Virus record (IMG/VR): IMGVR_UViG_3300025012_000071
Reading direction: 5' to 3' (one strand)
Source: an uncultured virus (IMG/VR IMGVR_UViG_3300025012_000071)
Taxonomy: Duplodnaviria > Heunggongvirae > Uroviricota > Caudoviricetes
Length of the DNA: 64,000 nt
Shown piece after piece: positions 96 through 35,994 of the stretch. Made by a program: the position numbers and the translations under genes. Under the pieces are notes generated by a model. It was not told the DNA's origin, did not search any database, and saw nothing but the letters and a program-made list of their open reading frames with translations. How positions within the stretch are numbered: position 1 is the first letter of the stretch; the number at the start of each line of letters is the position of its first letter.

Positions 96-123
96 TGATC
101 CGATAATAAATATTATGTCAACT
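96..123 (+). other. dif-like XerC/XerD recombination site
   Basis: TGATCCGATAA-TAAATA-TTATGTCAACT has the 11-6-11 layout; right arm differs by one base from the B. subtilis dif arm TTATGTAAACT. Confidence 0.75.
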
Positions 124-6244: not shown

Positions 6245-6859
6245 GTGAAGGAAGAAATTATCGGCAGGTCATGTACGGTATGTGGTGAGTGGAAATTGTT
6301 TTCCGATTTCAATAAAAACAGGGGAAGAAAATATGGATGTAGTAATGTTTGTAAAGTTTGCAAAAAGAAAATAGATAAACATTACTATGAGAAAAACAAG
6401 GAGAAAATAATAAGGCAAACAAGTGAATACCATAAGAAAAATCCAGAAGTAAAAAAGAAGTGTTGTGATAACTATAGGGCAAAAAATAAGGACAAAATTA
6501 GAGAAAGTGATAAATTATATCGAAAACATCATTTTAATGAAAGATATAAATATAATAAACTATATTTTTTAAAAAATCCTGATAAGATAAAAATATATGC
6601 CCAAAGGTATCGCAATAGATTACTTAACGCTTCTGGAAATTATACTCGCCAGGAATGGATAGATTTATGTAGTAAATGTGGTAATAGGTGTATTTGTTGC
6701 GGATTGGAAGTAAAATTAACAGTAGATCATATTATACCACTATCCAGGGGTGGTTCTAATTGCATAGACAATATACAACCATTATGTAAAAATTGCAATT
6801 CAAGTAAAAACAACAAAATAATAGATTATAGAAAAAAATTTACAAAAGATGCTCAATAG
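6245..6859 (+). CDS. HNH endonuclease
   Basis: N-terminal CxxC..CxxC; C-terminal CICCG...TVDHIIPLSRGGSN...NIQPLCKNCNSSK. Confidence 0.9.
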   Translation: MKEEIIGRSCTVCGEWKLFSDFNKNRGRKYGCSNVCKVCKKKIDKHYYEKNKEKIIRQTSEYHKKNPEVKKKCCDNYRAKNKDKIRESDKLYRKHHFNERYKYNKLYFLKNPDKIKIYAQRYRNRLLNASGNYTRQEWIDLCSKCGNRCICCGLEVKLTVDHIIPLSRGGSNCIDNIQPLCKNCNSSKNNKIIDYRKKFTKDAQ

Positions 6860-8502: not shown

Positions 8503-9474
8503 ATGACTGTAAATAACCAAAACACAGGTGCTTTTCAAAAGGCAATGGGTTTATATGAAGTACCGATCTTAGAATATTGGCAGCAGAAGTATGTTGATTC
8601 GATTAAAGAAAGTATGATCCCCATGCTTTTTTCCAGAGTAAATAGCAACAACCCTTCTGAGGCAATTAGTGAGCAGGTAGGTAAGGTAACATTCAATAAG
8701 TGGCAGGGTGAGTTTAACTACTACGATCTTAAAGACGGATCTGCCAGGACGTGGACCCCGGTGCCATGGGAGGCGGGACTTGCCTATGACAGGTTTACCC
8801 TTTCCAATATCAAACTTATTAACTTACAAAATGACACTTCTCACTTTGCTATTGAGGCCGCAAGGTTCCGCGAAAGATGCGCTGCCGGCATTTTTACCTA
8901 TGCAGATCAGACTTCTTTCTCGGTTGATGGAAACGTGTTGGATTGGACAAGAACTGCTAACGGACTACCTCTTGCCAGCAATGCTCAGACTTCTTCTAAT
9001 TATTCAACCACACAGGATAATTTGGAATCCTTGGAATTAAATGAGGAGAATCTCGAAATTTTATGTCAAAAAATGTTTGACCTGAAAGACGAGAACGGAC
9101 GCGAGGCTAACCTCCAGCCTGACTGCCTTGTAGTGCCTACAGCTTTGCGTAAGAAGGCTTTGGAGTTGATTGGTGGAGAAGGTAAGGTTGATACTAGCGA
9201 CAACAACCCCAATATTTACAATGGCAGTATGAAATTGATGGTTTGGAAAAACTTCCGTCGCCAAGCAGGAAAAACAGGTCAACCGTGGGCAGTTATTGAT
9301 TATGAAAGAGCAAAAGAGGCAATGAAGTGGATTAATCGTCTTGAATCAGGTGAGGATTTTGAGGTAACAAGTAATAAGGACTGGAAGAATCAGAAGTGGG
9401 AACTTGGTTCTATTATGTGGTTTAGCGCAGGCCCATACTCTTTTCACCCGTTCCAGTTTTCAATTCCGGCGTAA
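8503..9474 (+). CDS. major capsid protein (Mu gpT-like HK97 fold)
   Basis: Motifs NGLPLAS, L.EENLE......M...KDENG, PDCLVVP.AL...A, N..NIY. Confidence 0.85.
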   Translation: MTVNNQNTGAFQKAMGLYEVPILEYWQQKYVDSIKESMIPMLFSRVNSNNPSEAISEQVGKVTFNKWQGEFNYYDLKDGSARTWTPVPWEAGLAYDRFTLSNIKLINLQNDTSHFAIEAARFRERCAAGIFTYADQTSFSVDGNVLDWTRTANGLPLASNAQTSSNYSTTQDNLESLELNEENLEILCQKMFDLKDENGREANLQPDCLVVPTALRKKALELIGGEGKVDTSDNNPNIYNGSMKLMVWKNFRRQAGKTGQPWAVIDYERAKEAMKWINRLESGEDFEVTSNKDWKNQKWELGSIMWFSAGPYSFHPFQFSIPA

Positions 9475-9722: not shown

Positions 9723-10715
9723 ATGGAACAAAAGGGCGCTATGTTTAGGAAGAATTTTTCTGATATACTTAACGGATTTAAGGAAAGGGACTGTATTCTG
9801 CTTATAGACAAGGAAGAATATGTAAATACTAAGCAAAAACTTCCATATATATGTAATAAGCATAAAGATAAAGGCGTTCAGTATACTCGCTGGGACAATT
9901 TTAGATTGTCGGTTGGTTGCTATTATTGCAGTTATGAATATAGGGGTAAAAATAGAAGGTTAAATTTTGAGGATGTTGAAAAAGCATTTTTAGATAGAGA
10001 CTATATTCTTTTATCCAATAAAAATAACTATAAAGGCAACAAAACAAAACTCGCGTACATTTGTCCAAAGCATAATGATAAAGGAATACAGCAAATATCA
10101 TGGGCAGACTTCAATTCTGGATGCGGTTGCTATTATTGTGGCAGGGAAAAGGTAGAGGAATTTAAGGTAAAATATACATTAGAACATTGGGAGAAAGAAT
10201 ACGCGGAGCGCGGTTATACTCTTTTGAATCCTGAATACAAGGGCACTAATAGTTTTTCCTATTTTGTTTGCGAAAAACATCCTGACAAGATACAAAGGGT
10301 TAAATTCGCAAATTTTGCATATCAGGGTGATGGATGCTCGTTTTGCGCCGAAGATCGAAGACCGAGAGGTAAAAATCATTATGCATGGACAGGAAACGCC
10401 CCTGAATATGAAAGAATAAGGAAAAGTAAAAAATATATTTTGTGGAAAATTTCTGTCCTTAAAAGAGATAATCGCACCTGCCAATGTTGCGGAAGTAGAA
10501 AAGGCAAGGATTTAAGGGCGCATCATATTAAGGGTTTTGCAAATTATCCAGAGTTAAGACTGGAAGTAAGTAATGGCATAACTCTTTGTAAATATTGTCA
10601 CGATACCAAGTATCACGGAAGTCTGCATAATGTTTGCGGATGCTGGAATGTTACCGAAGAACAACTAACTGAATATATAGCAAGTAGGAAGGAGGAATTA
10701 TTAAATGCAAATTGA
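9723..10715 (+). CDS. HNH endonuclease with three repeated zinc-binding modules
   Basis: Three C..H......W..F...GC..C type repeats, then RDNRTCQCCG...AHHI...NGITLCKYCH. Confidence 0.85.
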   Translation: MEQKGAMFRKNFSDILNGFKERDCILLIDKEEYVNTKQKLPYICNKHKDKGVQYTRWDNFRLSVGCYYCSYEYRGKNRRLNFEDVEKAFLDRDYILLSNKNNYKGNKTKLAYICPKHNDKGIQQISWADFNSGCGCYYCGREKVEEFKVKYTLEHWEKEYAERGYTLLNPEYKGTNSFSYFVCEKHPDKIQRVKFANFAYQGDGCSFCAEDRRPRGKNHYAWTGNAPEYERIRKSKKYILWKISVLKRDNRTCQCCGSRKGKDLRAHHIKGFANYPELRLEVSNGITLCKYCHDTKYHGSLHNVCGCWNVTEEQLTEYIASRKEELLNAN

Positions 10716-12394: not shown

Positions 12395-13331
12395 TATTCA
12401 AGGTAAAAATCCTGTTGGTACAACTGCCGCAAATACTAACCCCATCACCATTGCCGGTGTTGACGGTGATAATAAAATCAAGGGTTTAGTGCTTAACAAT
12501 GATGGAGCGGCAACTGTTGTCGTAACATCTAATAGTGATATTATGGGTGCTGTTCTTAATCACGGTGACATACCTAATATCGTTAAAAATACCCCATTAT
12601 TAGCCAATGCAACATTTACACAGGATACAATTGATAGGCAAGAACAAGTTATACCTATTGGTTCTACAAGAATATGGGTAAATGCAGATCAGTCAGGTAC
12701 ATTGTATCTTGAAGAATCTCATAATGGAACCAACTGGACAACTACGGCAACAAATGTCGTCAGCGCAGGAGTTCAGGTAATTAGGGATTGGACTGTATTG
12801 ACTCGCAGATATGTTCGCATTAGGTACGTTAATGGTGCAACAGCGCAGGGAAGTTTTAAAATTCAGCAGTATTTTATCGGCGTTGGTGTAACTCCTGTAA
12901 GGGCAGAAGATGGAACAATAGTCAGTATTGGTAGTAAAGCAGATGCTGCCGTTACAGATCCCTCTTTGTCCGGAAGTGAGATCGCATTGCTAAAGGGTCT
13001 GCTGACAAAATTAAACACTATCATTGACGGTACTACCCCTGCTACTACCGTACTAACTGGTAGTATAAATGGGAAAGGTGCGTTAGCAACTGTAACTACA
13101 GCAGGGACAAGAGTACAGTTACCTTCTTTTGCTTGTAGAGAAGTAACTATAACTGCTAAACGTACAAATACTGGTTATATTTACGCTAGTCCCGACAATC
13201 TTGTTTCTTCAACTGTTTATGGTATTGAATTAGCAACAAAAGATAGTTTTACTTTTAATGTGGCAAACGCTAATCAAATATGGATTGATGCCTCTGTGAG
13301 TGGGGAGGGGATTAGTTATGTCGCGGTTTAA
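12327..13331 (+). CDS. virion structural/fiber protein (start uncertain)
   Basis: Thr/Gly/Val-rich beta domains (RYVRIRY.NGA..Q..F), trimer-like IALLKGL segment. Confidence 0.65.
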   Translation: MIILVSALTTKRTARVVLKIATNIQGKNPVGTTAANTNPITIAGVDGDNKIKGLVLNNDGAATVVVTSNSDIMGAVLNHGDIPNIVKNTPLLANATFTQDTIDRQEQVIPIGSTRIWVNADQSGTLYLEESHNGTNWTTTATNVVSAGVQVIRDWTVLTRRYVRIRYVNGATAQGSFKIQQYFIGVGVTPVRAEDGTIVSIGSKADAAVTDPSLSGSEIALLKGLLTKLNTIIDGTTPATTVLTGSINGKGALATVTTAGTRVQLPSFACREVTITAKRTNTGYIYASPDNLVSSTVYGIELATKDSFTFNVANANQIWIDASVSGEGISYVAV

Positions 13332-15036
13332 TCCATCATTTAATGCTAAATTTGCAGAAATTGATAATTTTAAAAAGTTCAATGCCATAAATCCTATAAC
13401 TAATAGTGATATAAGCAATAATACTGTTGGTTGGGTTGGTACATCTAGTAGTTTAATATCGTCTATAAATAATGAATTGATATTTTTAGCTACTGCACAA
13501 AATGGCAGATATAGTAGTCCTACAGTCCCAGTAACAACAGGTCATAAATATTATTTTTTCGCAAATGTAAAAAGTACGTCTCCCTTAGTACAAGTATCAC
13601 TTTCTGGATTAGAAGTAAAATACCATACAGGAAGTGGTAATTATGAATACCTTTACGGCATTATTACTGCTGGTGGAACAACTAACTATCGGGTAACTAC
13701 ACAAGATACAAGAACGGATGGTTGGGATAATGTTTCTGTTAAATATATTGGGTGCATAGATTTAACTGTTTTATTTGGTGTTGGAAATGAAATACCTATG
13801 TATCAAATGTATTTGCTTATGTCTAATTATCCTAATGGATGGTTTAATGGTACAATAACTGATTTTATTTCTCATAAAAATATGTTTTTATATTTTCAAA
13901 AATATCAAACATATCCAGTTGACGGAGAGGATATTACAGAATATATACAGAACATTCTCAACCAAACAAATACTTTTGTGCTACAACGAAAAGGTATTTA
14001 TTATATAAACAATACTATTAAAATACCAAGTAACTCATCTCTTAAATTTGGGAGTAATACGAGATTAAAAATGAAACCGTCTGTAAATAAACCAATGTTT
14101 GAAAATAGCGACCCAATAAATGGCAATATAAATATATCTATAGATGGCGGTATTTTTGATGGTAGTAATGAAAGTAACACGTATGAATATGCTTTGCTAT
14201 ACGGTATATTTAGATTTGCTGGAATAACCTGTTTTACTTTTAAAAACCTAACTTTAAGAAATCCGGTTACATTTGGAACTCAATTTTGTAGATTGACTAA
14301 TTTCTTAATTGAGAATATAACATATGACTACAATCTTAATAATCTCAATATGGACGGTGTTCATTTACACGGTAAATGTTATAACGGTAGAATAATTAAT
14401 TTACAAGGAAATACCAACGACGATTTAGTAGCATTAAATGCTGATGACCAAATATTTAGAATGAGCAATGCAAGTTTTGCTACTCAAATGGAAAATGGCG
14501 ATATGGATAATATATTCGTAGATGGTATATATTCCGATAATGGATATAGAGGTGTTAGGATATTAAGCATTTCTGCTAGAATTGATAATATAAAAATACA
14601 AAACATACGTGGTATTTTCAATAAAGATACTGTTTTAATGGGAAGAATTGCGGTGGATGGAATGAGTGGTGATGGTAATATGGGTTCTATTGAGTTATCT
14701 AATATTTCATCTATTACAAAGCAAGCAGACAAAACAACTATCCATATTGACGGGAATTGTGAATATCTAAAAATATCGGATTTATCTATTGATTACTCTG
14801 ATATAGTAACAGATTCAACGGCTGTAGTAAAAGTCTTTTCTGGATATTCTGTTAATCACTTAAATATAAACAATATGTATTTAAAAAATACCGCAGGAAA
14901 TACTATTGTTCCTTTAGTCGTTGACGGTACTGTTGGAAATTTAATTTTTGATAATTTTATTTCTGATACAGTACAGGACATAACTGTAAATGGAACTGTA
15001 ACAAATTTTAGGTCTAATTCATTTACTTTAGAGTAG
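13318..15036 (+). CDS. tailspike/depolymerase (carbohydrate-binding module plus GH28-like beta-helix)
   Basis: NMDGVH...TNDD resembles the GH28 NTDG...GDD motifs; beta-helix periodicity; markedly AT-rich. Confidence 0.75.
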   Translation: MSRFNPSFNAKFAEIDNFKKFNAINPITNSDISNNTVGWVGTSSSLISSINNELIFLATAQNGRYSSPTVPVTTGHKYYFFANVKSTSPLVQVSLSGLEVKYHTGSGNYEYLYGIITAGGTTNYRVTTQDTRTDGWDNVSVKYIGCIDLTVLFGVGNEIPMYQMYLLMSNYPNGWFNGTITDFISHKNMFLYFQKYQTYPVDGEDITEYIQNILNQTNTFVLQRKGIYYINNTIKIPSNSSLKFGSNTRLKMKPSVNKPMFENSDPINGNINISIDGGIFDGSNESNTYEYALLYGIFRFAGITCFTFKNLTLRNPVTFGTQFCRLTNFLIENITYDYNLNNLNMDGVHLHGKCYNGRIINLQGNTNDDLVALNADDQIFRMSNASFATQMENGDMDNIFVDGIYSDNGYRGVRILSISARIDNIKIQNIRGIFNKDTVLMGRIAVDGMSGDGNMGSIELSNISSITKQADKTTIHIDGNCEYLKISDLSIDYSDIVTDSTAVVKVFSGYSVNHLNINNMYLKNTAGNTIVPLVVDGTVGNLIFDNFISDTVQDITVNGTVTNFRSNSFTLE

Positions 15037-15110
15037 TCAACTAACGAAGGTGCGAGAGTTTCAATCAGGGAGGCGTTTTGCCTCCCATTTTACATAAAGT
15101 AGGTGATCTA

Positions 15111-15950
15111 ATGTCATTCACCCTAACAAACTGCAAGGCACTCGTTGACTCATGGACACAAGAGGCGGTAAGCAATGCCGATCTTCTCCTATGGGGCAGG
15201 GAGTGTCTAAGAGATAATATACCATCGAGACTATGGTTAGAAAGCACAAAACTATTCAGAGCATCGGCAAAGAAATTCTACAGTCTGCCGAGTGACTTCG
15301 TGAGCATGGTTAGTCTATTCACAGGCATAGGTTATCCTGCCGGACTTACTGTAACCGCAGAAGGTACGACAGGTTCAACGGCATATGGATACCGAGTAAC
15401 CTCCATAAACGACGATAACGAAACAATTGCCTGTACTGAGATTAAGACTACCTCCGGCAATGCTACATTATCCGAAACAAACTACAACGCCCTCTCATGG
15501 ACAGCGGTAACAGGTGCATCCTCCTATGCCATATATCGCACGACAGGCGGTGCTACACAGGGGTTAATCGGTACAGCAACTACAACTACCTTTAGTGATA
15601 CAGGACTTGCAGGCGACGGCGAGAGCGTACCTATTGAGGATACGACAGGCATTAAATACACCAACTTCACTATTCGCAACCGCAAAATATCCTTCTATGA
15701 TGCAGACACATATGCTATGTCCTACATTGCACGTCCGACGGTTGCAAACATAACCGACAATGTACCACTAATTGATGCCTGCGAGTATGCAATAGCCAAA
15801 TATATTGCTTCTCGATACCGCAGCGCAGAAGATTCGGACGATGCCGACGCTTCAAGGTGGTTGCAGGAATTCTATAATTCCATTAAGAACCTTATCGATG
15901 AGAATGAACTCGATAGCAACGATTCATTTCAGATAAAGGCGGTGTGGTAA
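15111..15950 (+). CDS. head-tail adaptor with inserted Fn3/Ig-like domain
   Basis: YSLPSDF adaptor motif, LSWTAVTGASSYAIYR Fn3-like insert, helical C-terminus. Confidence 0.65.
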   Translation: MSFTLTNCKALVDSWTQEAVSNADLLLWGRECLRDNIPSRLWLESTKLFRASAKKFYSLPSDFVSMVSLFTGIGYPAGLTVTAEGTTGSTAYGYRVTSINDDNETIACTEIKTTSGNATLSETNYNALSWTAVTGASSYAIYRTTGGATQGLIGTATTTTFSDTGLAGDGESVPIEDTTGIKYTNFTIRNRKISFYDADTYAMSYIARPTVANITDNVPLIDACEYAIAKYIASRYRSAEDSDDADASRWLQEFYNSIKNLIDENELDSNDSFQIKAVW

Positions 15951-20379: not shown

Positions 20380-23300
20380 TTGTCTCAACAAAAACTATAT
20401 GAAGCGGTCAGGTCGGGTAGAGTTAAGTTAACTGATTTGAACGATGATGGTAAGCAGGCACTAAGGGAATATATGTCTACTAAAGACAAACCTGCTACAC
20501 CTAAACAATCTACCTATAGTAGAATTGATAGTAAGGTTGGCGGCATACTTCCGGGCGGTAGCGACTTTAAACCTTCTGAGTATGGCATAAGCGATAAGTT
20601 TGCGAAAGATAATCCGGCAATTAGTAGGGGATTGGCGACAGTCGTTAGTCCTCTAAAGGCGGTATTTGACATACCTTCCGTTGAACGTGCTAGTCAGGCA
20701 GGCAATGAAGTTAGATTCTTGACGGAAAATCCAGATAAGACGGACACAGGTTCAAGTACCAAAAACATGGTTGCTGACTTTATCGGGGGTGCTACTGGTT
20801 TTATTGGTGGCAGTCCCGGTAGCATTATGCCCTCTGCAGGTGGTGCGTTGTTTGGTGGTGGTGCTAAAGCAACAGGTAAGATATTACCTAAGACAACTAG
20901 ACCGATAGTAAGAACGGCGGCAGAAATGGCAGGAGGTAGCGTTGTCTATGATTTAGGTAATGCAGCAGCAAATGGACATTCACCTACAGTTGAGGACTTG
21001 GGAGTTGTGGCAGCGCAAAATGCTTTATTGGGTGCAGCAACCTATGGACTAGGTAAGGGTGTAAGTAGGTTGTTTAAGGATAAAACAGAGATACCTTTAA
21101 CAAAAAAAGAAGTCACCTCTCCAAAAGTCAAGCAGGACATACCTGCCGACATTAACTTAGCAAGAAACGTAGTCAAGAACACAACCAACTTAGGCAGGAT
21201 AAACAGGATAATTGATGCTTACCCTGAGTTAGCGGCAGAATACCCACAGTTTCGTTTACAGCAGGGCGACAAGGTTATCTTACCTAACGGCAAAGAAGCG
21301 ACCGTTAAAACAAATGACAGGATGATTATACAGGTTGATGTAGATGGTAAGGCTGCTAGTGTTGGGCGTAAGGTTGTTAATGTTCCGGAGGTTAAAACTG
21401 AGGCGGTATCTGAAGTAGCAACTCCTGAGATAAAACAGCAACCAGTTATCAACGATGTGCCGAGAGTAAATAACCGAAGCGGTGCTGATACTTTTGACGA
21501 TGCGGTTAGTGAAACAGTTAGCGACAACTACAATAAAGCGGTTGAACTTGTTACGCAAAACAATAGTCCTTCTATCTCATTACTACAAAGAAACCTAAAA
21601 ATAGGTTATGCCGAGGCAGCAAGACACATTAACCGCATGGAGTCAGAAGGTATTGTTAGTGCCTTTGATGGCAACGGTAGAACTGTTTTGAAGCAGGGCA
21701 ATAAAACAGCGACAGACATTGAAACTGCTTTTAACGATTTGGGCAATGCTGCACAAGAAGCAGGATACAAGAAAACTATGGATGATGTTGCTAAGCAGGG
21801 ATATGTGTCGTTTGCTAAGAAAGAATCTGCCGATTTATTCCGCAACGATCCTAGATATGAGGGATGGAAGGAAGAACAGGTTAATGGTGAATATCGGTTT
21901 AGTCCACAAGAGAACGTACCTTCCATTACTACTCAAATTAAGGTTAATCGTGGCAGTAAGGGCGTAGCAAACATAACACTACCCGATGCCGACCATGCCC
22001 TATTGTTTGAGTTAGATAAGCAAATGAAGATGCTTAATAACGAGAAAACATATTCGCAGGAATTGGAAGTCTTGGCGGAGCAAAACTACAACAAACTTAA
22101 AGACAAGTTTCCGGATCCCATCGGTACTGCCGACACTTACCGCAGGAGTGTTTTGAATGGTGCGAAGGATATTGAGAAGGACGGGACTTATGCGGCAGAA
22201 ACTTTTGAGGCGGTTAAGGCAAAACTTGATGCCGAGGCAAAACGATTTGATATTCCGGTAGATAAGAGAACATCTAAGAATGTCGGGGATAGAAAAGTTA
22301 ATGCTATGCAGTACAATCACCCCGAGTTGAAACCACATATTCAAGAACAGGCTAAAAACATCATGGGTGATCTTGCCGCATCATTAAAGGCAGCGCGTGG
22401 CGGTACTACCGTTTATGGCGAGAATACGGGCGGCGAAAACATTTCATTCGGTAATAAGCGCATGACTACTAATACTATTGCTAAGATATTGGACGAGCAG
22501 AAGGTTAGTTATGCCGACATTAATAACGCTTTACAGCGCATTATTGACGATGCAGGGCAGGAGAATGTTGCACTTGCTAAACGGATTGAGTTGCTAATTG
22601 ACGAGCATTTGACCGATGGATATACCGATATTTACGGTAATAAGTATCCTCCGAGTAAAGAATACGTCGATGCTAAAAACAAGGCGTATGGTACGGATAT
22701 TAAGTCAAAAGAACAGTATAAGGATATGTCAGACGAGGATTGGGCAGAGTTAGAACAGTTGCAGGGTGAGATAGAGGGTAAGGGTGACGTTAAGCAGGAA
22801 ACCCCTGAGTTATCCGCAGAGGTAGGCAATAAGTCTACATCGGAAGTTAAAACTATTCCTTCATATGATGAATTTAGTAATAAAGTCATGGATATATACA
22901 ATAAGCAAGAAAAGAAAGCATATGCCGAAGCAGACAAAAGGCAAGAGAAACTTATTGCCGAAAAAGAGAATATCCTTAACGGTATTATAGATGGCAGTAT
23001 TAGTCCCGACGAAATATTAAGCAAGCGTAAAGAATTGCGTATAACAAGAAACGATAACGGAACATATTCTTATAGTCGTGGTAGTAAAAAATATACCACA
23101 ACAGAACCTGTTGCCGATGTTGAAACTTTTAAACGAAACCTTGCTAGTGAATTAGTTGAGGATAATATTAAGAACATCAAGAGGAAAGATAAGTATGCAG
23201 GTGTTATTGATGCTGCAAGGAAAAATACGAATAAAGAATTAGGACTAGGTAGCGACACTATCTATGATAGTCATCAGGAAATGTACGATAAACTTTATGG

Positions 23301-26300
23301 CAGTAAAACTATGGCAGAGGACATTGGACTAAAACCGGAGAAAGCGGACGAGTTAATAATTGAAGGGAATAAGGTTACTGGTAGTGCTGAATCTATTCCA
23401 GGGCAGGCAGGCACATATGATCCCGGCACAATTGGGGCGGCAAGGTTAACCGTACCGGAAAAGCAAGCAACTCTCCCAGGCACTAATGAAAAGGTGCGGT
23501 CATTCCAGAGAACTGCCATTGATGCGCCTGTAACCGATTTAGATACCAAGGCAGGTCTACTGGTTGATATTTACACAGAAGGTCCGGGCGCATATAAATC
23601 CATAACCAATATCGAAACCGAGGCAGCAGCAAGAAAGTTTATCGAGGACATGGGAGAAGGAGAAGCACTTAGGTATGTTTTCGATGAAACTGAGGTATCG
23701 GCATTAAAACCTGCAATGGCAGGACAACTTGCATATGCGCTACAAAAACAGGGAAAGCATTATACATCAGTAGAATTGCTTGAAAGTATGGGCAAGCAAC
23801 TTACTTCTGCCGGTCAAATGGCGCAGGCAGTAAAAATATTTATGAACTTATCTCCCGAAGGTGTACTTATCAAGGCAAACAAAGAAACCAAAAAGGCGTT
23901 TAACGAACTACCGAAACAAACTAAAGATAAGCACGACGATCTGAGCGGCAAACTGCAAGAAGAATTTGACGGTATCGACAAAGAAGCAATTGACCAAGTG
24001 GTTAGCGAGACTCCCGAATTGGGCGGCAAGAAGCAACCGGACAAGAAAGGCAATAAACCCGGCAAACCTACTACCGAGAAGAAAGAGTTTGACCCTGCCG
24101 CCGTATTAGCGCAAAAGGTCGTTCAATGGACTAAACCGATGATGCCTAAAGCAATCACTTCTGAGATGCAAATGGTTAGGACATTGTTCAAAAAGGCGCA
24201 GGAGGTATTACCTAAAGATAAAGTTAAACCCGTTAAGACAAACGCATTAGACGAAATCGCAACCGCACTACAGCAAAGCGACAACTACCGCAAAACTTGG
24301 GAAGATTCAAAGAAGGTTATCCTGGAGCAGAACGGAGAAATACCGCAGGTCATGAAAGACGTTGAAGCATACGTTGAGCATTTCCTTAATGTGCCGTATT
24401 CTGAGAGATCGCTTAGTCGTGTATTAGTCGAAGCAATGAAGGATAAGAGTTTTGACTTAGAGCAGTCTGCATTTGGTCCAATGTCACCGAATTTCCGAGG
24501 AACTAAAGCAGAGAATAACGCCTTTATTCAGTCTATCGTTAAAGATAGTGGGTTGACCGGAAAGAACGCCGAAGTATTGTCCTTAGAATTAGGCAGTAAA
24601 CTTGATAAAGCGTTGAAGAAGAAGCGTGACGATAAGACTTCTGACTTAGCGAAAAGGATTATAGGTATGGCGGTTGACAGTCCGAAAGGTGCCGAGACTA
24701 ACCCCGTCAAAGAAATGTTTAATATTCTGATGCAGAAAGCAAAAGAGTCTATGCCGAAGGTAGAAGGTGCTAAGTCTGCCAAGGATGGCATGTTGCCGAT
24801 ATATAACGCCTTGAATAACCGCAAAATGTTTAATCAGGTATGGTCAGAGGCGAAGAAGGATATTGTTAAGCAGTTAGAAGCGAAGGGATTATCTGTTGAA
24901 GGTGTTAACCTTGACCAAATGTTTGCCGAACTTCTCTATCACCCCTACACTAAGGGACAGTTAAGTAGGGAGGTTACTAAGGGTATCAAGCAGTACGGTA
25001 TTGATGTGAATAACATTGTCCGGCAACACTTTACCGTAGTTGATAAAACAGGTCAGACGTTGGCTGAAAAGTTGACTACTCGCGGTATGTTACCAAAGGA
25101 CGAAGCGGCATTGTTGGCTCAGGACATTCAGGCCAGATTTGCCGAGATAGCGGAAATGAAGAAAGCGCAGATATTGAAGAATATGTTTCGCGAGAAGTCG
25201 TTGACTAAAGAACAGAGAACTATTGACCAGAAGATTGTTGAACTTTCAAATTTGGGCGCATTGTCTAAGGAGCAATACAGACGGTCGGTTGCTGAGAAGA
25301 TGGGGTTGCCGGTGTTGACCGAGGATATTGCTAATAGGTTGGTTGCGTTGGCAGAGCAGGCGCAGTTGGCGACTGGTCGGCGGTCGGAGATATTGAGGGC
25401 GCAGATGTTGAAAATACTAGCGGAACAAAAACCTGTATCGTTTACTAGAAAGTTTGATGCTTTGCGTAGAATTGCAATGCTACTAAACCCTAAAACACTA
25501 TTGGCGCGAAATATTGGCGGCAACGCTATATTGGGAACATTTGAGAATATTAAGGACATTCCAGGAAGTATTGCTGACAGAGCAACAACGGCATACCTTA
25601 AAAAGAAGGGCATTGATGCAAAAAGAACTACTCTTGCACCTTCAGTAGAGGGAATTGCTACACAGGCAAAGGGTATTGTAAAAGGTGCTAAATTAGTTAC
25701 GGAGGACATCAAACTTGGTGTTGATACTTCTCCTACAAGAGGACAGTACGAAATACCAGTCGGAAGAACCTTCGACAATAAGGTGCTTAATTTCTTAGAT
25801 AACGCTACAACGAGAGGTTTGCAATACGGAGATAGAACATTCTTTCAAGGTGCATATGACGACGCATTGCGGCAGCAAATGAAAATTAACAAGACAGATA
25901 AACCAACTCCCGAAATGGAGGATTTTGCATTAGAAGTAGCAAAAGACAGGACATTCCAGAATGATAGTGAAGTGTCTAACGCTATTATCTATTTGCGACA
26001 AGGGTTAAACAAACTTGGAGCAAAAGCAGGGATAGGCAATAAGGAATGGGGATTAGGAAATATCGCTATTCCATTCGCAAAGACACCTGGAAACATTATG
26101 GATAAAGCTATTGATTATAGTCCGTTAGGATTTATTAGTGCAGCAAAGGAAGCATATCGCGGTAGTAAGGGTGAATTTAATCAAAAGAAATTTGTCGATG
26201 CTATAGGCAGAGCAGTAACAGGAACCGGGTTGATTCTACTTGGTTACGATCTTGCCCGAAGTAATGTTATAACAGGGCAGCAAGATAAAAACTCCAACGT

Positions 26301-27216
26301 AGCTAGTTTTAAAAAGAACTTGGGCATGTCTCCTTATTCTTATAATATGAGTGCCGCTATTAGGTTGTTAAGCGGGGAAGATCCGAAACCTAAGAAGGGT
26401 GACGTAATAAGGACATATGATTTTGCCCAACCAATAAGCGTCGCATTGGCGGTTGGTGCTGATATATATTCTGGAATTAAAAACCGTAAACGCGCCTCAA
26501 ACTTGGTTGCCGAATCAATTAAAAGTGGTGGCAATGCACTTTTAAAGCAGTCAGTTTTGCAAGGTTTAACGCGAATGGTTGGCGGTTACGATACTATGCA
26601 GGGCGTACTTGATACTATATTTCAAGCACCATTACAGTTCATTCCTACAGTCAGCGGTCAGATAGCAAAGATAACTGACAAAAATGCCCGCGAAACAAGA
26701 AGTCAAAGCATGTATGAAGAAGTGATAAATAAAGGTAAGGCGAAAATACCTGGACTAAGTTCATCGTTGCCGAAAAAGGTTGATACTCTTGGTAGGGATA
26801 TAGAGTCAATATCAGGTGGAAATACATTCTTTAATTCTTTTATAAATCCAGGACTTACTAAGAAATTCAATCCTTCTGAAGTTGAGCAACGAGTTTTAGA
26901 TGTTTACGAAAAAACTGGCGACGCTTCAATATTGCCAAGGGTTGCCGATTCTTCCTTTAAGGTAAATAGGATTAATAAGAAAAGTGAACCTATTAGCATT
27001 GACCTTACAGGACAGGAAATGTCCGACTATCAAAAAAATATGGGTACTAAGGTGTTTGAAGGATATTCAAAGTTGTCGCCAAAAATGCGACCAGAGATCG
27101 CCGTTAAACGAATGAAAAGCATTTTGGATAGTGCTAATGAATATGCCAAGATACAACTACTAAAAAGCAGGGGTTATGTGGTGGTCAAAAGAAACGGTGG
27201 AGTAGTTGTCAGGTAA
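20380..27216 (+). CDS. giant internal virion/ejection protein with FtsK-gamma domain
   Basis: 2278 aa; C-terminal AMLLNPKT..RN and PFAKTP.N motifs of phage DNA-transfer/large polyvalent proteins; winged helix at 21523-21690. Confidence 0.75.
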   Translation: MSQQKLYEAVRSGRVKLTDLNDDGKQALREYMSTKDKPATPKQSTYSRIDSKVGGILPGGSDFKPSEYGISDKFAKDNPAISRGLATVVSPLKAVFDIPSVERASQAGNEVRFLTENPDKTDTGSSTKNMVADFIGGATGFIGGSPGSIMPSAGGALFGGGAKATGKILPKTTRPIVRTAAEMAGGSVVYDLGNAAANGHSPTVEDLGVVAAQNALLGAATYGLGKGVSRLFKDKTEIPLTKKEVTSPKVKQDIPADINLARNVVKNTTNLGRINRIIDAYPELAAEYPQFRLQQGDKVILPNGKEATVKTNDRMIIQVDVDGKAASVGRKVVNVPEVKTEAVSEVATPEIKQQPVINDVPRVNNRSGADTFDDAVSETVSDNYNKAVELVTQNNSPSISLLQRNLKIGYAEAARHINRMESEGIVSAFDGNGRTVLKQGNKTATDIETAFNDLGNAAQEAGYKKTMDDVAKQGYVSFAKKESADLFRNDPRYEGWKEEQVNGEYRFSPQENVPSITTQIKVNRGSKGVANITLPDADHALLFELDKQMKMLNNEKTYSQELEVLAEQNYNKLKDKFPDPIGTADTYRRSVLNGAKDIEKDGTYAAETFEAVKAKLDAEAKRFDIPVDKRTSKNVGDRKVNAMQYNHPELKPHIQEQAKNIMGDLAASLKAARGGTTVYGENTGGENISFGNKRMTTNTIAKILDEQKVSYADINNALQRIIDDAGQENVALAKRIELLIDEHLTDGYTDIYGNKYPPSKEYVDAKNKAYGTDIKSKEQYKDMSDEDWAELEQLQGEIEGKGDVKQETPELSAEVGNKSTSEVKTIPSYDEFSNKVMDIYNKQEKKAYAEADKRQEKLIAEKENILNGIIDGSISPDEILSKRKELRITRNDNGTYSYSRGSKKYTTTEPVADVETFKRNLASELVEDNIKNIKRKDKYAGVIDAARKNTNKELGLGSDTIYDSHQEMYDKLYGSKTMAEDIGLKPEKADELIIEGNKVTGSAESIPGQAGTYDPGTIGAARLTVPEKQATLPGTNEKVRSFQRTAIDAPVTDLDTKAGLLVDIYTEGPGAYKSITNIETEAAARKFIEDMGEGEALRYVFDETEVSALKPAMAGQLAYALQKQGKHYTSVELLESMGKQLTSAGQMAQAVKIFMNLSPEGVLIKANKETKKAFNELPKQTKDKHDDLSGKLQEEFDGIDKEAIDQVVSETPELGGKKQPDKKGNKPGKPTTEKKEFDPAAVLAQKVVQWTKPMMPKAITSEMQMVRTLFKKAQEVLPKDKVKPVKTNALDEIATALQQSDNYRKTWEDSKKVILEQNGEIPQVMKDVEAYVEHFLNVPYSERSLSRVLVEAMKDKSFDLEQSAFGPMSPNFRGTKAENNAFIQSIVKDSGLTGKNAEVLSLELGSKLDKALKKKRDDKTSDLAKRIIGMAVDSPKGAETNPVKEMFNILMQKAKESMPKVEGAKSAKDGMLPIYNALNNRKMFNQVWSEAKKDIVKQLEAKGLSVEGVNLDQMFAELLYHPYTKGQLSREVTKGIKQYGIDVNNIVRQHFTVVDKTGQTLAEKLTTRGMLPKDEAALLAQDIQARFAEIAEMKKAQILKNMFREKSLTKEQRTIDQKIVELSNLGALSKEQYRRSVAEKMGLPVLTEDIANRLVALAEQAQLATGRRSEILRAQMLKILAEQKPVSFTRKFDALRRIAMLLNPKTLLARNIGGNAILGTFENIKDIPGSIADRATTAYLKKKGIDAKRTTLAPSVEGIATQAKGIVKGAKLVTEDIKLGVDTSPTRGQYEIPVGRTFDNKVLNFLDNATTRGLQYGDRTFFQGAYDDALRQQMKINKTDKPTPEMEDFALEVAKDRTFQNDSEVSNAIIYLRQGLNKLGAKAGIGNKEWGLGNIAIPFAKTPGNIMDKAIDYSPLGFISAAKEAYRGSKGEFNQKKFVDAIGRAVTGTGLILLGYDLARSNVITGQQDKNSNVASFKKNLGMSPYSYNMSAAIRLLSGEDPKPKKGDVIRTYDFAQPISVALAVGADIYSGIKNRKRASNLVAESIKSGGNALLKQSVLQGLTRMVGGYDTMQGVLDTIFQAPLQFIPTVSGQIAKITDKNARETRSQSMYEEVINKGKAKIPGLSSSLPKKVDTLGRDIESISGGNTFFNSFINPGLTKKFNPSEVEQRVLDVYEKTGDASILPRVADSSFKVNRINKKSEPISIDLTGQEMSDYQKNMGTKVFEGYSKLSPKMRPEIAVKRMKSILDSANEYAKIQLLKSRGYVVVKRNGGVVVR

Positions 27217-27565: not shown

Positions 27566-28108
27566 ATGAAAAAGTTACTAATCTTACTTACGGTCACACT
27601 TCTATTGTCGCTGTCTGTACCTGCATTTGCCGCTATCGGGATAAACGTCAACGGTCAAGATGTGTATTCTGATGTGTCAGCGCAAAACATTGGCGGCAGG
27701 GTAATGGTTCCGGTTCGTTTAATTGCTGAGATATTCGGCGCGAATGTATCGTGGGACGAATCAAGGCAAACGGTAAATATCGTGTGGCAACCAAAGCAGG
27801 TTATAAGTCAGCAGGTACAACCGCAGACATATAATGATACTGATTATGAAGAAGAATATGCCGCCGCTTATGAGGAAGAATTAGAGAACGCAAGGCAGTA
27901 CGTCATTGATATGTATGAGTCGCAGCGAATCGTTCTGCAAGCGCAGATGGATCAAGAGTGGAAGGATTATTGCAAGCAATACACTAAAAATTCTCAGACA
28001 GCTCCAGATAAAAACTCTTGGTCATACAGGGAATTACAGAAGGAATATGATCCATATTTCAAGTCTTTGGAAGTCCAAAGGGATGCAGAATTGAATAGAA
28101 TTAGGTAA
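27566..28108 (+). CDS. secreted protein with copper amine oxidase-like N-terminal (stalk) domain
   Basis: Signal peptide ending AFA-A, then GRVMVPVRLIAEIFGANVSWD. Confidence 0.85.
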   Translation: MKKLLILLTVTLLLSLSVPAFAAIGINVNGQDVYSDVSAQNIGGRVMVPVRLIAEIFGANVSWDESRQTVNIVWQPKQVISQQVQPQTYNDTDYEEEYAAAYEEELENARQYVIDMYESQRIVLQAQMDQEWKDYCKQYTKNSQTAPDKNSWSYRELQKEYDPYFKSLEVQRDAELNRIR

Positions 28109-31446: not shown

Positions 31447-32028
31447 ATGTTAATAGTCATAGATCCCGGTCATGGTGGAAAAGACCCCGGAGCAGTAGGA
31501 AACGGATTGCAAGAGAAGCAACTTAATTGGACGGTTGCAAACTTAGTCAAGGATAAACTCGCTAAGTACGATGTAGAGGTTACTATATCCCAACCATCCT
31601 GTACTAATCCGAACTCTGATAAGAATACCGAGTTAAGCGGTCCGGTCAATGATGCAATACGTTTGGGAGCAGATTATTATTTATCCATCCATACCAACGC
31701 AGGTGGTGGAACTGGTTTTGAGTCATTCATACACAACAACGCGAGCAGGGCAACTGACTTGATACGTAACATTATTCACGACAATACTGCCCCGGTATTT
31801 ACTAAGAACAATATGCCGGACAGGGGCAAGAAACGTGCTAACTTCTATGTGTTGCGGAAGATGCAGGAGAAAGGTATACCTGCCATGTTGATTGAGAACG
31901 GTTTTATCGATACCAAGAAAGATGCTGATAAACTAAAAGATTCGGCATTTCTTAGTAAGTTGGCAAATGAGATCGCTTATGGCATGGTGTTGGCGTTCAA
32001 TCTAAAAACTAAAAGTGGGGTGGCATAA
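31447..32028 (+). CDS. endolysin, N-acetylmuramoyl-L-alanine amidase (Amidase_3)
   Basis: IDPGHGG.DPGA, EK, SIHTNA, LIENGFID. Confidence 0.95.
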   Translation: MLIVIDPGHGGKDPGAVGNGLQEKQLNWTVANLVKDKLAKYDVEVTISQPSCTNPNSDKNTELSGPVNDAIRLGADYYLSIHTNAGGGTGFESFIHNNASRATDLIRNIIHDNTAPVFTKNNMPDRGKKRANFYVLRKMQEKGIPAMLIENGFIDTKKDADKLKDSAFLSKLANEIAYGMVLAFNLKTKSGVA

Positions 32029-32656: not shown

Positions 32657-32732
32657 TGGCTGTGAAGGTAGGTCTCGAACCTACGACAAGCTGATTAATA
32701 GTCAACCACTCTACCAACTGAGTTACTTCACA
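32657..32732 (-). tRNA. tRNA-Asn with anticodon AUU
   Basis: 76-nt cloverleaf TGTGAAG..CTTCACA-G-CCA; D arm ACTC/GAGT; anticodon loop CT-ATT-AA; T arm GTAGG-TTCGAGA-CCTAC. Confidence 0.9.
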
Positions 32733-34081: not shown

Positions 34082-34141
34082 TTTACCGTCCCACCATGGT
34101 GCGCCTGATTTAGACAGAGGCGTGGTGGGATCTGTTGATGT

Positions 34142-34170
34142 ATTATACCACCCAGCAAAAACAATTTCAA
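34142..34170 (-). promoter_or_regulatory. sigma-A promoter of RNA island
   Basis: TTGAAA-17-TATAAT with extended TG. Confidence 0.75.
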
Positions 34171-34197
34171 CAACTTTTTCCCTAAAACTTACCTGCA

Positions 34198-34225
34198 ATA
34201 TGGACAAATTCTATCCGCATAAACT
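34198..34225 (+). promoter_or_regulatory. sporulation sigma (sigma-E-like) promoter
   Basis: ATA-17-CATAAACT about 30 nt before the FtsK start; no sigma-A -10 on this strand. Confidence 0.5.
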
Positions 34226-34256
34226 TAACGAACAGCATAGCGAACGGAGGTATGTT

Positions 34257-35384
34257 ATGGAGAAAAAAAATAACCTTCTTGCCGATGGCATAGATGCCCT
34301 TAAAATAGCATGGAGACACCGTAAGGGCAACGAAATACCTGCAACCATACTAGACACTATAGACATACTTTATCCCCCAAATAAACCCCGTATATTGCCT
34401 ATACGGAAGGGGATTAAGAAAACTCCTACAGGTTGGCATATGATATTTACTATGCGCCCCGGCACCTCATTTAACGCATTAAAAAGTCAGCAAGACTACT
34501 TTGAGGATGCTACCGGGTTGAATGTGGAAATGATTAAGAAGGGGAGGTTTTTGTACATGGACATAAACACTAACGAGATACCAAGTAAGTTAGAATACGT
34601 TTGGGATTATAGCGGAAAATTAGACTTGCCTATACCTGTCGGAATTAGCAAGCAGGGACTAGAAGTGCTACCGCTTGAAGAATCTCCGCATCTACTTGTT
34701 GCCGGAGTACCGGGGTATGGAAAATCAAACTTTCTGCATGTCCTTATTGCTTCATTGCTGCCAGTAGCACGAATAGGAATTATTGACCTAAAGCGGTTAG
34801 AATTCGCCTATTTGAAGGATTATGCGGCATTAGCAAAGACAGAGGAAGAAGCGTTATTGTTGATGCAGTCTGTCGAGAAAGGCATGGAGCAGCGTATAAG
34901 GACATTAGAAAAGGCAAAGGTAGTTAAAATTCAAGACTACAATAAAACAGCGAAAGAACCATTACCATTTATTGTTGTCGTGATTGACGAACTAGCAGAA
35001 ATATCTTGCAAGGATACAATCAAGTTAGTTGACCGCATAACCAGACTTGCTAGGGCGGTTGGAATATCTGTAATAGCGGCAACACAAAGACCGTCAACAA
35101 AGGTTTTGCCGGGCGACACAAGGGCAATGTTCCAAGCGAGGTTATGCTTTCAAGTTGCCGACGAATTAAATAGTCGCATGGTGCTAGGTGAAAATTGCTC
35201 TATTGCCGCACATTTGCCGGGAATAAAAGGCAGGGCGATATATAAGTTTGGTATGGATACCAAGGAAGTACAGACAATGCACCTGCCAGTCAAACAGGCA
35301 AAAAATCTATTGAAAGGCAGGGATATGGATGTTTTTAACGAGTGGTGCAATGTCTCACAGAAAACACGGCTATTGCCGCGATAA
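34257..35384 (+). CDS. FtsK/SpoIIIE-family ATPase (no gamma domain)
   Basis: PHLLVAGVPGYGKS (Walker A), IDLK, VVVIDELAE (Walker B), ARAVGI...ATQRP. Confidence 0.92.
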   Translation: MEKKNNLLADGIDALKIAWRHRKGNEIPATILDTIDILYPPNKPRILPIRKGIKKTPTGWHMIFTMRPGTSFNALKSQQDYFEDATGLNVEMIKKGRFLYMDINTNEIPSKLEYVWDYSGKLDLPIPVGISKQGLEVLPLEESPHLLVAGVPGYGKSNFLHVLIASLLPVARIGIIDLKRLEFAYLKDYAALAKTEEEALLLMQSVEKGMEQRIRTLEKAKVVKIQDYNKTAKEPLPFIVVVIDELAEISCKDTIKLVDRITRLARAVGISVIAATQRPSTKVLPGDTRAMFQARLCFQVADELNSRMVLGENCSIAAHLPGIKGRAIYKFGMDTKEVQTMHLPVKQAKNLLKGRDMDVFNEWCNVSQKTRLLPR

Positions 35385-35994
35385 CGAAATAGCATGGCGC
35401 GTAGGTAGTCATAAATGTCTTAACGCCGAACAGGTACAGGTATTACTATTCCCATTGACCGCATCTGGTAAAAGAAAATGTCAGCAAAGATTAAAGAGGT
35501 TGACCGATCAGTTAAGGTTACGACGTTTCCGTTATTCGCCAGAAGAACCATACGCATACTTCCAGAAGGAAATTAAACAGATAGAGCATACCGTATTGCT
35601 TAATTGGGCGGTTATCTGGATAGAGCGACAATTGAAGTCATGGGAGGAAATTTACTCCGTAGACTTCAATTATGACATGAAAATACTAATTACAGATTGC
35701 TTTATTGCTATTAAAAATACAATCACGGGTCAGTTTAGGTTTCTGTTTATCGAAATGGACATTCATCATCCGGGTAACGAGTTTGATAAGGTGCGGAAAT
35801 ATAATAAGTTGTACGATAATTTACCAGATCAATGGTGGGTAAAGCATACTAAGCGGTTTCCTGCCGTTTTAATAGTCACTAACGACGAGCGAAAGTTAAA
35901 GGAAATTAACAAAATGATTAAGTCGGAGAATAAAAACGGGTTGGAGTTTAGAAGTTATCTTGTGGGAAATTTACGCCGGGAGGTGCTGGGATGA
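35350..35994 (+). CDS. replication-relaxation (Replic_Relax) protein
   Basis: RD.EI, winged-helix N-terminus with RLKRL, EH...LN, TD, FIEMD, K..KY..LY, FPAVLIVT. Confidence 0.8.
   Translation: MSHRKHGYCRDNEIAWRVGSHKCLNAEQVQVLLFPLTASGKRKCQQRLKRLTDQLRLRRFRYSPEEPYAYFQKEIKQIEHTVLLNWAVIWIERQLKSWEEIYSVDFNYDMKILITDCFIAIKNTITGQFRFLFIEMDIHHPGNEFDKVRKYNKLYDNLPDQWWVKHTKRFPAVLIVTNDERKLKEINKMIKSENKNGLEFRSYLVGNLRREVLG

Follow-up and report, generated by a model that had tools for sequence, protein, structure and literature searches.

The FtsK-gamma-like winged helix encoded in this viral DNA is genuine in both identity and fold, and it is an interchangeable module in a variable slot of a giant phage protein. 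By the window we mean the whole stretch of DNA that was analysed, 64,000 nucleotides long. The giant protein and the parts of it that are discussed below lie in the window as follows:

20380..27216, + strand: gene of the giant phage protein, 2278 aa, assigned to the polyvalent or internal-virion type (open reading frame list and sequence)
21502..21906, + strand: 135-aa cassette, residues 375-509, consisting of the gamma winged helix and an alpha/beta extension of roughly 70 aa (alignment of the flanks, tblastn)
21523..21690, + strand: FtsK-gamma winged helix-turn-helix, residues 382-437 (Pfam PF09397, phmmer against PDB, AlphaFold2 with Foldseek)
21586..21642, + strand: equivalent of E. coli FtsK 1288-1306, residues 403-421, comprising the end of helix 2, the turn and the recognition helix (alignment)
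25327..27129, + strand: C-terminal module, about residues 1650-2250 (BLASTP coverage)

The gamma domain, its slot and the giant protein

An earlier note on this DNA had quoted 56 residues as a match to the gamma consensus, and these residues are the exact translation of 21523-21690 on the plus strand. The consensus match held in a search with the FtsK_gamma HMM. PF09397, which has a curated gathering cut-off of 30.6 bits, scored 70 bits with the 56-mer (E 1.3e-19) and 63.5 bits with the whole open reading frame (E 1.5e-17), and it reached 69.5 bits when the nearest virus record was searched in six frames. Six distinct PDB sequences were found by phmmer at E <= 0.01, every one of them with an FtsK gamma domain, among them those of P. 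aeruginosa (2j5o/2ve8, E 4e-9) and of E. coli (2j5p, E 1.4e-8).

Residues 362-520 were modelled with AlphaFold2, and across the gamma domain the pLDDT is 95-97. A structural match, the lack of which the earlier note would have counted against its assignment, was found with Foldseek. At E <= 0.001 there are 12 matches, each of them to a P. aeruginosa FtsK gamma chain, with a target TM-score of 0.71-0.85, and ranks 1-13 are FtsK gamma chains throughout (target TM-score 0.71-0.85, rmsd 0.8-3.1 Å), the structures matched including 2ve9, 2ve8, 2j5o and 2j5p. Compared with chains A and B of the KOPS-bound gamma structure 2VE9, the rmsd is 1.0-1.1 Å over 56 columns and the target TM-score 0.83-0.85. 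The conserved framework QR..IGY..AAR..ME is retained, with all of its residues intact. Residues 367-471 are matched by PHROG families of stand-alone gamma open reading frames (13700, 6576 and others), and residues 384-471 by a 310-aa protein of Pseudomonas phage YMC11/07/P54. When relatives are ranked by per-domain score, canonical gamma domains of the GYNRAAR type come nearest, at about 50% identity, which makes a cellular origin of the domain plausible.

The slot was compared among eight related loci that hold both of its flanks. Alignment, and tblastn of the flanks, showed that the flanks are conserved while the content varies: a single locus, from the same phage as the window, carries the gamma cassette of 405 nt, four have a linker of 45-60 nt, two have an unrelated insert of 387 nt, and the remaining one has an insert of 573 nt that is a RamC_N domain (E 9e-24). 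Since close relatives do without the cassette, its function is dispensable. In the AlphaFold2 model the extension behind the winged helix forms extra helices and a hairpin, with a pLDDT of 78-89. The sole other protein with the cassette is P0006, which is 98.5% identical over residues 1-804; its copy is 100% identical to the 96-residue gamma query, even though the C-terminal half of P0006 differs.

The gene of the giant protein starts with TTG, and GAGGTGA is found 6 nt upstream. Homologues of the protein (n=115) range from 1252 to 3987 aa. A Pfam scan of 19 of them gave at least one family in 11, and in 10 of these 11 there were polyvalent-protein families, those among the scanned homologues being LPD38, ART-PolyVal, LPD23, LPD3, PBECR5, PBECR3 and MuF_C. 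The C-terminal module is common to nearly all homologues, with BLASTP aligning it in 106-109 of 114. Atlas look-alikes of residues 1600-2278 are viral hypothetical-protein clusters only, the nearest named one carrying LPD38, and residues 1897-1988 match 'internal virion protein D' of Pelagibacter phage HTVC011P (E 4e-6, 36.6% identity).

In the giant protein of the window itself FtsK_gamma is the sole Pfam match, and no LPD or enzymatic Pfam family was matched; its filing among the polyvalent proteins is therefore by kinship with the homologues, and by this kinship it is akin to them. In other searches with the protein PHROGs gave gamma-related families only, NCBIfam matched only the gamma end of FtsK, residues 510-980 had no usable Atlas match, a hydropathy scan found no hydrophobic segment, and no relative of the protein was found across a genome collection of 185,579 species.

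The recognition helix

The residue numbering of the window domain could be fixed because Keller et al. (2016) give FtsK 1289-1297 as RQFRIGYNR. In the phmmer alignment IGYAEAARHINRME from the window is paired with IGYNRAARIIEQME from E. coli, and the equivalences are N1296 to A411, R1297 to E412, R1300 to R415, E1303 to N418 and E1306 to E421. The residues named as reading KOPS are N1296, R1300 and E1303 (PMC2533119), and the statement of the earlier note that two of these three are substituted proved to be correct: A411 and N418 are changed, and R415 is the one member of the triad that is kept. E421, the equivalent of E1306, is retained as well.

To place these changes we used 276 gamma domains taken from the 149 best-scoring other proteins. 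The triad N-R-[D/E] is kept in only 36 of the 276, and alanine is the commonest residue at the position of N1296 (90/276). Glutamate at the R1297 position and asparagine at the E1303 position are uncommon, occurring in 9 and 10 of the 276 others, respectively. Going by these domains, departure from N/R/E is the rule among the relatives of the window gamma domain. The patch before helix 2 reads QNNSP in the window as compared to EKRKA in E. coli and ESRRA in P. aeruginosa; a loop without basic residues at this place is also found in 71 of the 276 relatives. Over 52 aligned columns the net charge is +1, a value within the range of the relatives that 106 of 257 do not exceed, and the electrostatics argue neither for nor against DNA binding. 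Two of the three KOPS-reading residues are changed, R1297 has become glutamate and the basic patch is lost, and the affinity for DNA could therefore be lower.

Among the E. coli residues that contact XerD, Keller et al. (2016, Table 1) list Q1288, R1289, R1292, I1293, G1294 and N1296. In the window Q403, R404, I408 and G409 are kept at these positions, while R1292 corresponds to K407 and N1296 to A411. At these positions gamma domains at large are most conserved, and the kept residues do not discriminate, since they are conserved in almost all gamma domains; they speak neither for nor against the retained protein-interaction role that the earlier note thought possible.

Phage context and possible roles

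Three further features of the window bear on the role of the domain:

96..123, + strand: dif-like 28-mer, immediately following the gene of the terminase small subunit (match to a degenerate core, shuffles)
34122..35384, + strand: phage FtsK/SpoIIIE-like ATPase, a separate gene without a gamma domain (PF01580, E 4.9e-20; PHROG 1358)
35329-35994: Replic_Relax gene, next after the FtsK-like ATPase (PF13814, E 2.7e-8)

Upstream of the giant-protein gene and on the same strand there are genes for TerL, a P22-like portal, the capsid, a GH28 tailspike and an SU10-type adaptor. By this gene content the source phage is podovirus-like, and the giant gene sits behind the tail genes. The FtsK-like ATPase resembles those of Bacillus, Clostridium and Enterococcus plasmids and of Bacillus phages, at 25-30% identity, and a Cu_amine_oxidN1 domain is encoded in the window (Pfam); the two together only suggest a Firmicutes-like host. 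The pair of ATPase and Replic_Relax genes is also present in the related contigs L009 (83% and 86% identity) and L016 (30% and 27%). Genes for a repressor and an anti-repressor are present in the window, and an Rfam search of it gave one tRNA and nothing else.

Sites of the dif type consist of two 11-bp arms and a 6-bp centre. The dif-like 28-mer has one mismatch to a 21-base degenerate dif core, and none of 100 shuffles matched. It has 20 of its 28 bases in common with the dif of Frankia alni as given by Kono (2011, PMC3025954). A 20-base core of the site is common to eight viral-contig loci, one of which belongs to a phage with a different terminase family, and in other contigs the sequences part ways at the site's borders. 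This comparison drew in part on short contigs of four sequencing runs, and those parts of 1-1500 that had no contig cover in runs X13 and X14 were excluded from the evidence. No tyrosine integrase was found in the eight site-bearing records (18-84% complete) and no serine recombinase in the three that were searched for one. The gamma domain is absent from all six other site-bearing records, G004 and G005-G009, which are fragments, 18-66% complete. An exact 27-mer of the site occurs in none of 185,579 species genomes. The site adjoins terS, within a conserved element of 178 bp (95-272), and may instead be part of the packaging signal.

With chances that we put somewhat above even, the gamma module of an injected giant polyvalent protein serves as a dsDNA-binding tether to phage or host DNA. 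The giant protein, encoded with the tail genes, probably travels inside the capsid and enters the host together with the ejected DNA. The gamma recognition helix would then bind double-stranded DNA, probably either reading sequence loosely or reading a motif other than KOPS/SRS. At entry or shortly afterwards the module would hold the giant protein, whole or as a fragment, on the phage genome or on host DNA. That the protein travels in this way, that the domain binds dsDNA and which DNA it would bind are all inferences. A scan of 7- and 8-mers of the window for a target motif gave no candidate, with no z above 3.8. On the plus and minus strands of the window GGGNAGGG occurs 4 and 0 times, GAGAAGGG 3 and 0 times, and GAAGAAG 20 and 2 times, a purine-rich skew that goes with the coding strand.

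It is conceivable, but unlikely, that gamma, once injected, acts as a stand-in for host FtsK-gamma and switches on the host's XerD-type recombinase at the dif-like site of the phage. Without FtsK, the phage would then either integrate at the host dif or be resolved as a circular prophage of plasmid type. E. coli gamma alone, or a 9-residue peptide of residues 1289-1297, activates XerCD recombination according to Keller et al. (2016), and Q403, R404, I408 and G409, with K407 for R1292, are among the six contact positions. However, the N1296 that Keller et al. (2016) describe as the hydrogen bond partner of XerD E119 is alanine in the window, and the kept residues are shared by almost all gamma domains. 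The site itself speaks for such a role through its single mismatch and the failure of all shuffles, its recurrence in eight loci with diverging borders, the records in which no tyrosine integrase (eight searched) or serine recombinase (three searched) was found, and the presence of repressor and anti-repressor. XafT of the TLC satellite phage, which reportedly is a phage-encoded Xer activation factor, counts in the same direction. Against it, none of the other six records has the gamma domain, the exact 27-mer is in none of the species genomes, and the position of the site right behind terS possibly marks a packaging signal. The complete course of events, in which a phage that shows no integrase of its own in the roughly 60 kb visible injects the gamma domain and thereby switches on the host XerD-type recombinase at entry, is a shade less likely still. 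It is similarly improbable that the domain reads the host chromosome, through a polar motif that in a Firmicutes-like host would be the equivalent of KOPS/SRS, and places the other modules of the giant protein on host DNA or interferes with host FtsK/SpoIIIE. The canonical nearest relatives would fit this, as would the finding that the motif read by gamma differs between bacteria (PMC3384302), but the recognition residues are unlike those of every characterised reader, and the cassette is missing from close relatives.

The chance that the cassette was shuffled in and is a decaying or purely structural passenger, with no specific DNA or protein binding left, is equally small. The unusual glutamate and asparagine, the lost basic patch and the dispensability in relatives are what such a passenger may look like, but a Pfam score twice the cut-off, the high pLDDT, the intact framework and the identical gamma copy in P0006, despite its different C-terminal half, argue against decay. 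Only about half that chance remains for a split FtsK, in which the cassette acts in trans as guide domain of the phage's gamma-less ATPase (34122-35384). The phage does encode an FtsK-like motor without gamma, and motor and gamma are found together in both records of the source phage. The ATPase/Replic_Relax pair is, however, conserved in L009 and L016 while the cassette is sporadic, although the loci of these two contigs carry the ATPase and do not include the slot; the ATPase was not found in the gamma-less relatives G003 and G004, which are fragments, 46% and 66% complete. The gamma domain is furthermore buried in a virion-module protein of 2278 aa, and we know of no gamma-motor interaction in trans. 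A cellular FtsK/SpoIIIE translocase with a drifted gamma domain, the frame implied by the earlier note, has next to no probability. The gamma match itself favours it and nothing else does: the protein has no FtsK_SpoIIIE, FtsK_alpha or 4TM domain, with PF01580 and PF17854 giving no match at E <= 0.1 in its 2278 aa, the domain lies at residues 382-437 and not at the C-terminus, and the neighbours are phage structural genes. The frame was dropped, as the domain is an internal cassette of a phage protein without an ATPase domain. Because it sits in a cassette of a phage virion module, reading of KOPS was never to be expected.

Known systems

The slot is a clean case of domain shuffling, as one and the same place can hold a gamma winged helix, RamC_N, unrelated inserts or nothing. 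FtsK-gamma is here used well outside chromosome segregation, and what is known of FtsK itself is unchanged by the finding. The dif-like site keeps activation of Xer alive as a reading, at low odds. The finding would matter more if gamma did act on host Xer at this site. The phage would then be the tailed equivalent of Xer-exploiting filamentous elements, with an activator injected as a protein and not expressed. Neither tailed phages exploiting Xer nor an injected recombinase activator are described in the literature consulted. That a dif-like site is common to unrelated integrase-less phage contigs of the same habitats is notable whatever gamma does. The likeness to XafT is one of concept, a phage factor that replaces FtsK-gamma in XerD activation, and its sequence is not known to be related to that of the window gamma domain.

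The giant protein resembles gp16 of the T7 type and 'internal virion protein D' in its large size and in the place of its gene, behind the tail genes of a podovirus. The local sequence similarity, however, covers 4% of the protein, in which neither a lytic transglycosylase nor any other gp16 feature was detected.

Gamma domains outside FtsK are also found in other phages, and what they have in common with the window is that a phage carries the gamma winged helix. In the Bacillus phages Sam46 and Sam112 the domain is fused to the small terminase (PMC8190038), the stand-alone gamma open reading frames (PHROG 13700, 6576 and others) are small proteins, and the FtsK-like proteins of Cluster J mycobacteriophages have a motor-linked gamma (PMC3706429), whereas in the window gamma is a cassette in a giant protein. 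The Sam46 gamma is reported to have conserved DNA-binding residues (PMC8190038), unlike the window domain. With the gamma domains of FtsK/SpoIIIE (2J5P, 2J5O, 2VE8, 2VE9) the window domain shares the Pfam family, the three-helix winged-helix fold, 43-49% identity and the equivalents of R1300 and E1306. It differs from them in not being at the C-terminus of a motor, in the changes N1296 to A, R1297 to E and E1303 to N, and in the extra alpha/beta extension of roughly 70 aa that follows it.

The closest likeness in arrangement is to the polyvalent proteins (PMC5512222). The giant protein is, like these, a very large multi-domain protein in the virion module of a phage with terminase and portal, its homologues share LPD and effector domains, and domains are swapped as cassettes. 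It differs in that its only Pfam match is FtsK_gamma, with no LPD or enzymatic family. The paper's example is from Cupriavidus while the window appears to come from a Firmicutes-like podovirus from metagenomes, and the two are likened by description. Iyer et al. (2017, PMC5512222) count an FtsK wHTH among the rare domains of polyvalent proteins and predict that it binds dsDNA, and a gamma domain in a protein of polyvalent type is thus an arrangement already described in general terms.

Gamma domain inside a giant phage protein

Positions 21523-21690 (+) of the window translate into the 56 residues that the earlier note had assigned to an FtsK-gamma domain. Pfam FtsK_gamma matches them with E 1.3e-19 (70 bits) as a fragment and E 1.5e-17 (63.5 bits, against a cut-off of 30.6 bits) within the full 2278-aa ORF, and phmmer returned six distinct PDB sequences at E <= 0.01, all six with an FtsK gamma domain from P. 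aeruginosa or E. coli. A structure model of residues 362-520, folded from an alignment of 27 sequences, had a pLDDT of 95-97 across the gamma part, and when it was compared with the PDB in Foldseek the first 12 ranks were P. aeruginosa FtsK gamma chains, free and KOPS-bound (E 8e-5 to 5e-4, TMt 0.71-0.85), with E. coli 2j5p at rank 13. The gamma domain is genuine, well past chance.

The domain forms residues 382-437 of an ORF that starts with TTG and has the ribosome-binding site GAGGTGA upstream. Judged by its genes, the window is a phage; in the database searched, a virus contig of 59,949 bp came closest to it.

Genes around the giant ORF
1186-2784, large terminase
3006-5117, P22-like portal
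8503-9474, Mu gpT-like capsid protein
13300-15036, GH28 tailspike
15078-15950, SU10-type adaptor
20380-27216 (+), giant ORF
31447-32028, endolysin
34122-35384, FtsK/SpoIIIE-like ATPase without gamma
35329-35994, Replic_Relax protein
42257-42826 (-), repressor-like gene
46910-47734 and beyond, RecT, DnaD/DnaC-like loaders, C5 methyltransferase, RuvC

Several other features were observed in this map. Two HNH/endonuclease VII-type genes, likely homing endonucleases, lie in the head-gene block, one between portal and capsid (6245-6859) and one after the capsid gene (9723-10715). Behind the portal gene there is another non-coding block, 5144-5408, which has 88.7% identity to L020, a related phage contig, although the genes beside it have diverged; no ORF of at least 100 aa was found between 5117 and 6245, and the block had no Rfam match. 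The ATPase and Replic_Relax genes make up a plasmid- or ICE-like pair, kept in the related contigs L009 (83%/86% identity) and L016 (30%/27%), the nearest named relatives, with 25-30% identity, being in Firmicutes plasmids and in Bacillus phages. A lone tRNA gene found with Rfam, 32660-32732 (-), is located between the lysis genes and this ATPase. Right after the giant gene, a Cu_amine_oxidN1 domain (E 3.9e-13) was matched in a 180-aa ORF (27566-28108); such domains typically occur in Firmicutes surface proteins, which gives a hint of the host group.

In Pfam the 2278-aa protein has a single match below E 0.09, FtsK_gamma, with neither an FtsK/SpoIIIE ATPase nor an alpha or membrane domain. 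With these domains missing and phage genes around it, an FtsK-translocase frame is ruled out. A database search with the giant protein (7999 candidates scored) gave 115 hits at E <= 0.001, their lengths ranging over 1252-3987 aa, and at least one Pfam family was present in 11 of the 19 homologues scanned, none in the other 8.

Pfam families in the 19 scanned homologues
LPD38: four
ART-PolyVal: two, one also with LPD23
LPD3, PBECR5, PBECR3, MuF_C: one each
Zeta_toxin + DnaJ: one

In BLASTP, a C-terminal module (about residues 1650-2250) is common to 106-109 of 114 homologues and a second module (about residues 600-800) to some 50. Only two align over residues 401-500. For residues 1897-1988 there is also a match (E 4e-6) to a protein from a T7-like Pelagibacter phage named 'internal virion protein D'. 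By these relatives, the giant protein belongs to the 'polyvalent proteins' of Iyer et al. 2017 (PMC5512222), which are predicted there to be delivered together with DNA. The same paper names 'the FtsK wHTH domain' among infrequent polyvalent-protein domains, predicted to bind dsDNA, and the arrangement is therefore a further example of a kind already published.

A second giant protein, P0006 (1792 aa), is 98.5% identical to the product of 20380-22791 over its residues 1-804, including the cassette around the gamma domain, and beyond residue 804 it has a different C-terminal half with LPD38. Whole N-terminal blocks thus recombine too, and the match points to recent recombination between polyvalent-protein genes.

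Recognition helix

In the phmmer alignment with PDB sequences, the stretch reads IGYAEAARHINRME in the window, IGYNRAARIIEQME in E. coli and IGYNRAARMIEAME in P. aeruginosa. The E. coli numbering follows from Keller et al. 2016 (PMC5052618), where RQFRIGYNR is placed at FtsK 1289-1297.

E. coli FtsK residues and their window counterparts
N1296: A411
R1297: E412
R1300: R415
E1303: N418
E1306: E421

The KOPS-recognition residues are given as N1296, R1300 and E1303, the triple alanine mutant being KOPS-blind (PMC2533119); a second 'blind' allele is R1300A/E1303A/E1306A (PMC2680272). With A411 and N418 changed and R415 kept, the earlier note was correct that two of the three are substituted. Its interpretation is partly right, for the residues, but fails for the frame, as the domain is part of a phage polyvalent protein with no FtsK motor.

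When residues 362-457 were searched against the full library with phmmer, 3761 proteins scored E <= 0.001, and local re-alignment of the best 150 gave 277 gamma domains, 276 besides that of the window, in a sample biased towards proteins with two or three gamma domains by the summed-score ranking. Among the 276, the N1296 position is Ala in 90 and Asn in 51 (Gly in 46 and Ser in 31 when all 277 are counted), so Ala at 411 is ordinary for non-canonical gamma domains. The R1297 position is basic in 233 and Glu in 9, the R1300 position Arg in 151, and the E1303 position acidic in 244 and Asn in 10; the N-R-[D/E] triad occurs in only 36. By these counts the unusual features are Glu412 and Asn418, combined in one other domain only, that of P0258, a protein matching phage PHROG families. 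By per-domain score the domain comes closest to canonical GYNRAAR domains, with which it shares about 50% identity, and its net charge is unremarkable. The FtsK-type ATPase was present in 19 of 81 Pfam-scanned proteins, and many in the sample carry a fusion, with TIR, Mrr_cat, DUF4062, T5orf172 or H-NS domains or with a soluble FtsK-like motor. Among the hits, small proteins with two or three FtsK-gamma domains in tandem make up a large class (P0117-P0265). Some of them are fused to these same domains, to response-regulator domains, or to soluble FtsK-like motors that lack the membrane part, and the class has the look of conflict or defence proteins.

Dif-like site at 96-123

A dif-like site came up during testing of the Xer idea. 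The query, a degenerate dif core, matches 103-123 with one mismatch, as against 0 of 100 shuffles with any such match. Compared with the Frankia alni dif given by Kono et al. 2011 (PMC3025954), the 28-mer at 96-123 agrees at 20 of 28 bases, among them the inner XerC arm and the greater part of the XerD arm. It lies 16 nt past the stop codon of an ORF that has a full-length homologue in a related phage contig, and this homologue is a small terminase subunit (PHROG 4044, E 4.5e-39). The 28-mer is part of a 178-bp non-coding block (95-272) with 84% identity to that same related phage, where the flanks of the block no longer align and the giant protein has 58% identity.

The 20-base core was present in eight viral-contig loci, behind a terminase-small-subunit-like stop codon in six and with a common right-hand block in six. 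The right flank is different in L025, and both flanks in L028, a phage with another terminase family (Terminase_3) and another portal. In the public sequencing run X13, contig depth was 260-383 over 101-250 as compared to 8 over 1-50, and one contig from run X14 matches the window at 94-125 only, with unlike DNA on either side. A six-frame search found no tyrosine integrase in the eight site-bearing records (18-84% complete), and the three incomplete records searched for serine recombinases had none. The lack of an integrase in these records, together with the sequence and spread of the site, fits a candidate Xer-type site that resolves plasmid-prophage multimers or serves integration. Lying behind the terminase gene, it might instead belong to a packaging signal, or be no more than a mosaic boundary. 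A gamma domain was absent from the other six site-bearing records, all incomplete, and the tie between the candidate Xer-type site and the cassette is therefore weak; the site is worth a follow-up of its own.

Variable slot and proposed role of the cassette

The cassette spans 135 aa and consists of the gamma domain and an alpha/beta extension, which the model gives a pLDDT of 78-89. In the alignment it fills a slot between two conserved flanks, the upstream one ending NRSGA(D/E)TF and the downstream one starting TQIKVNRGSKG.ANITLPDADH; eight of the 13 metagenome loci examined have both, and four of them have only a linker of 15-20 aa.

Slot content at loci with both flanks
L007 (same phage as the window): 405 nt, gamma cassette
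L008, L013, L014: 60 nt, linker
L015: 45 nt, linker
L010, L011: 387 nt, unrelated 129-aa insert, no Pfam match better than E 0.09
L012: 573 nt, RamC_N domain (E 9e-24)

Another long insert is found in the homologue P0009. From this comparison the slot, 21502-21906, is a hot spot of domain exchange.

The best supported role for the cassette is a predicted dsDNA-binding anchor of an injected protein, because of the fold, the kept framework with R415 and E421, the known activity of the family, and the prediction of Iyer et al. The carrier protein would travel with the phage genome, anchored through putative dsDNA binding by the cassette, which may read a motif other than KOPS/SRS, or read loosely; no candidate target motif was found within the 64-kb window. 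Stand-alone phage gamma proteins (PHROG 6576, 4212 and 6152; gp72 of Pseudomonas phage YMC11/07/P54) resemble the cassette, in that they too have the gamma domain followed by part of the extension, up to about residue 471.
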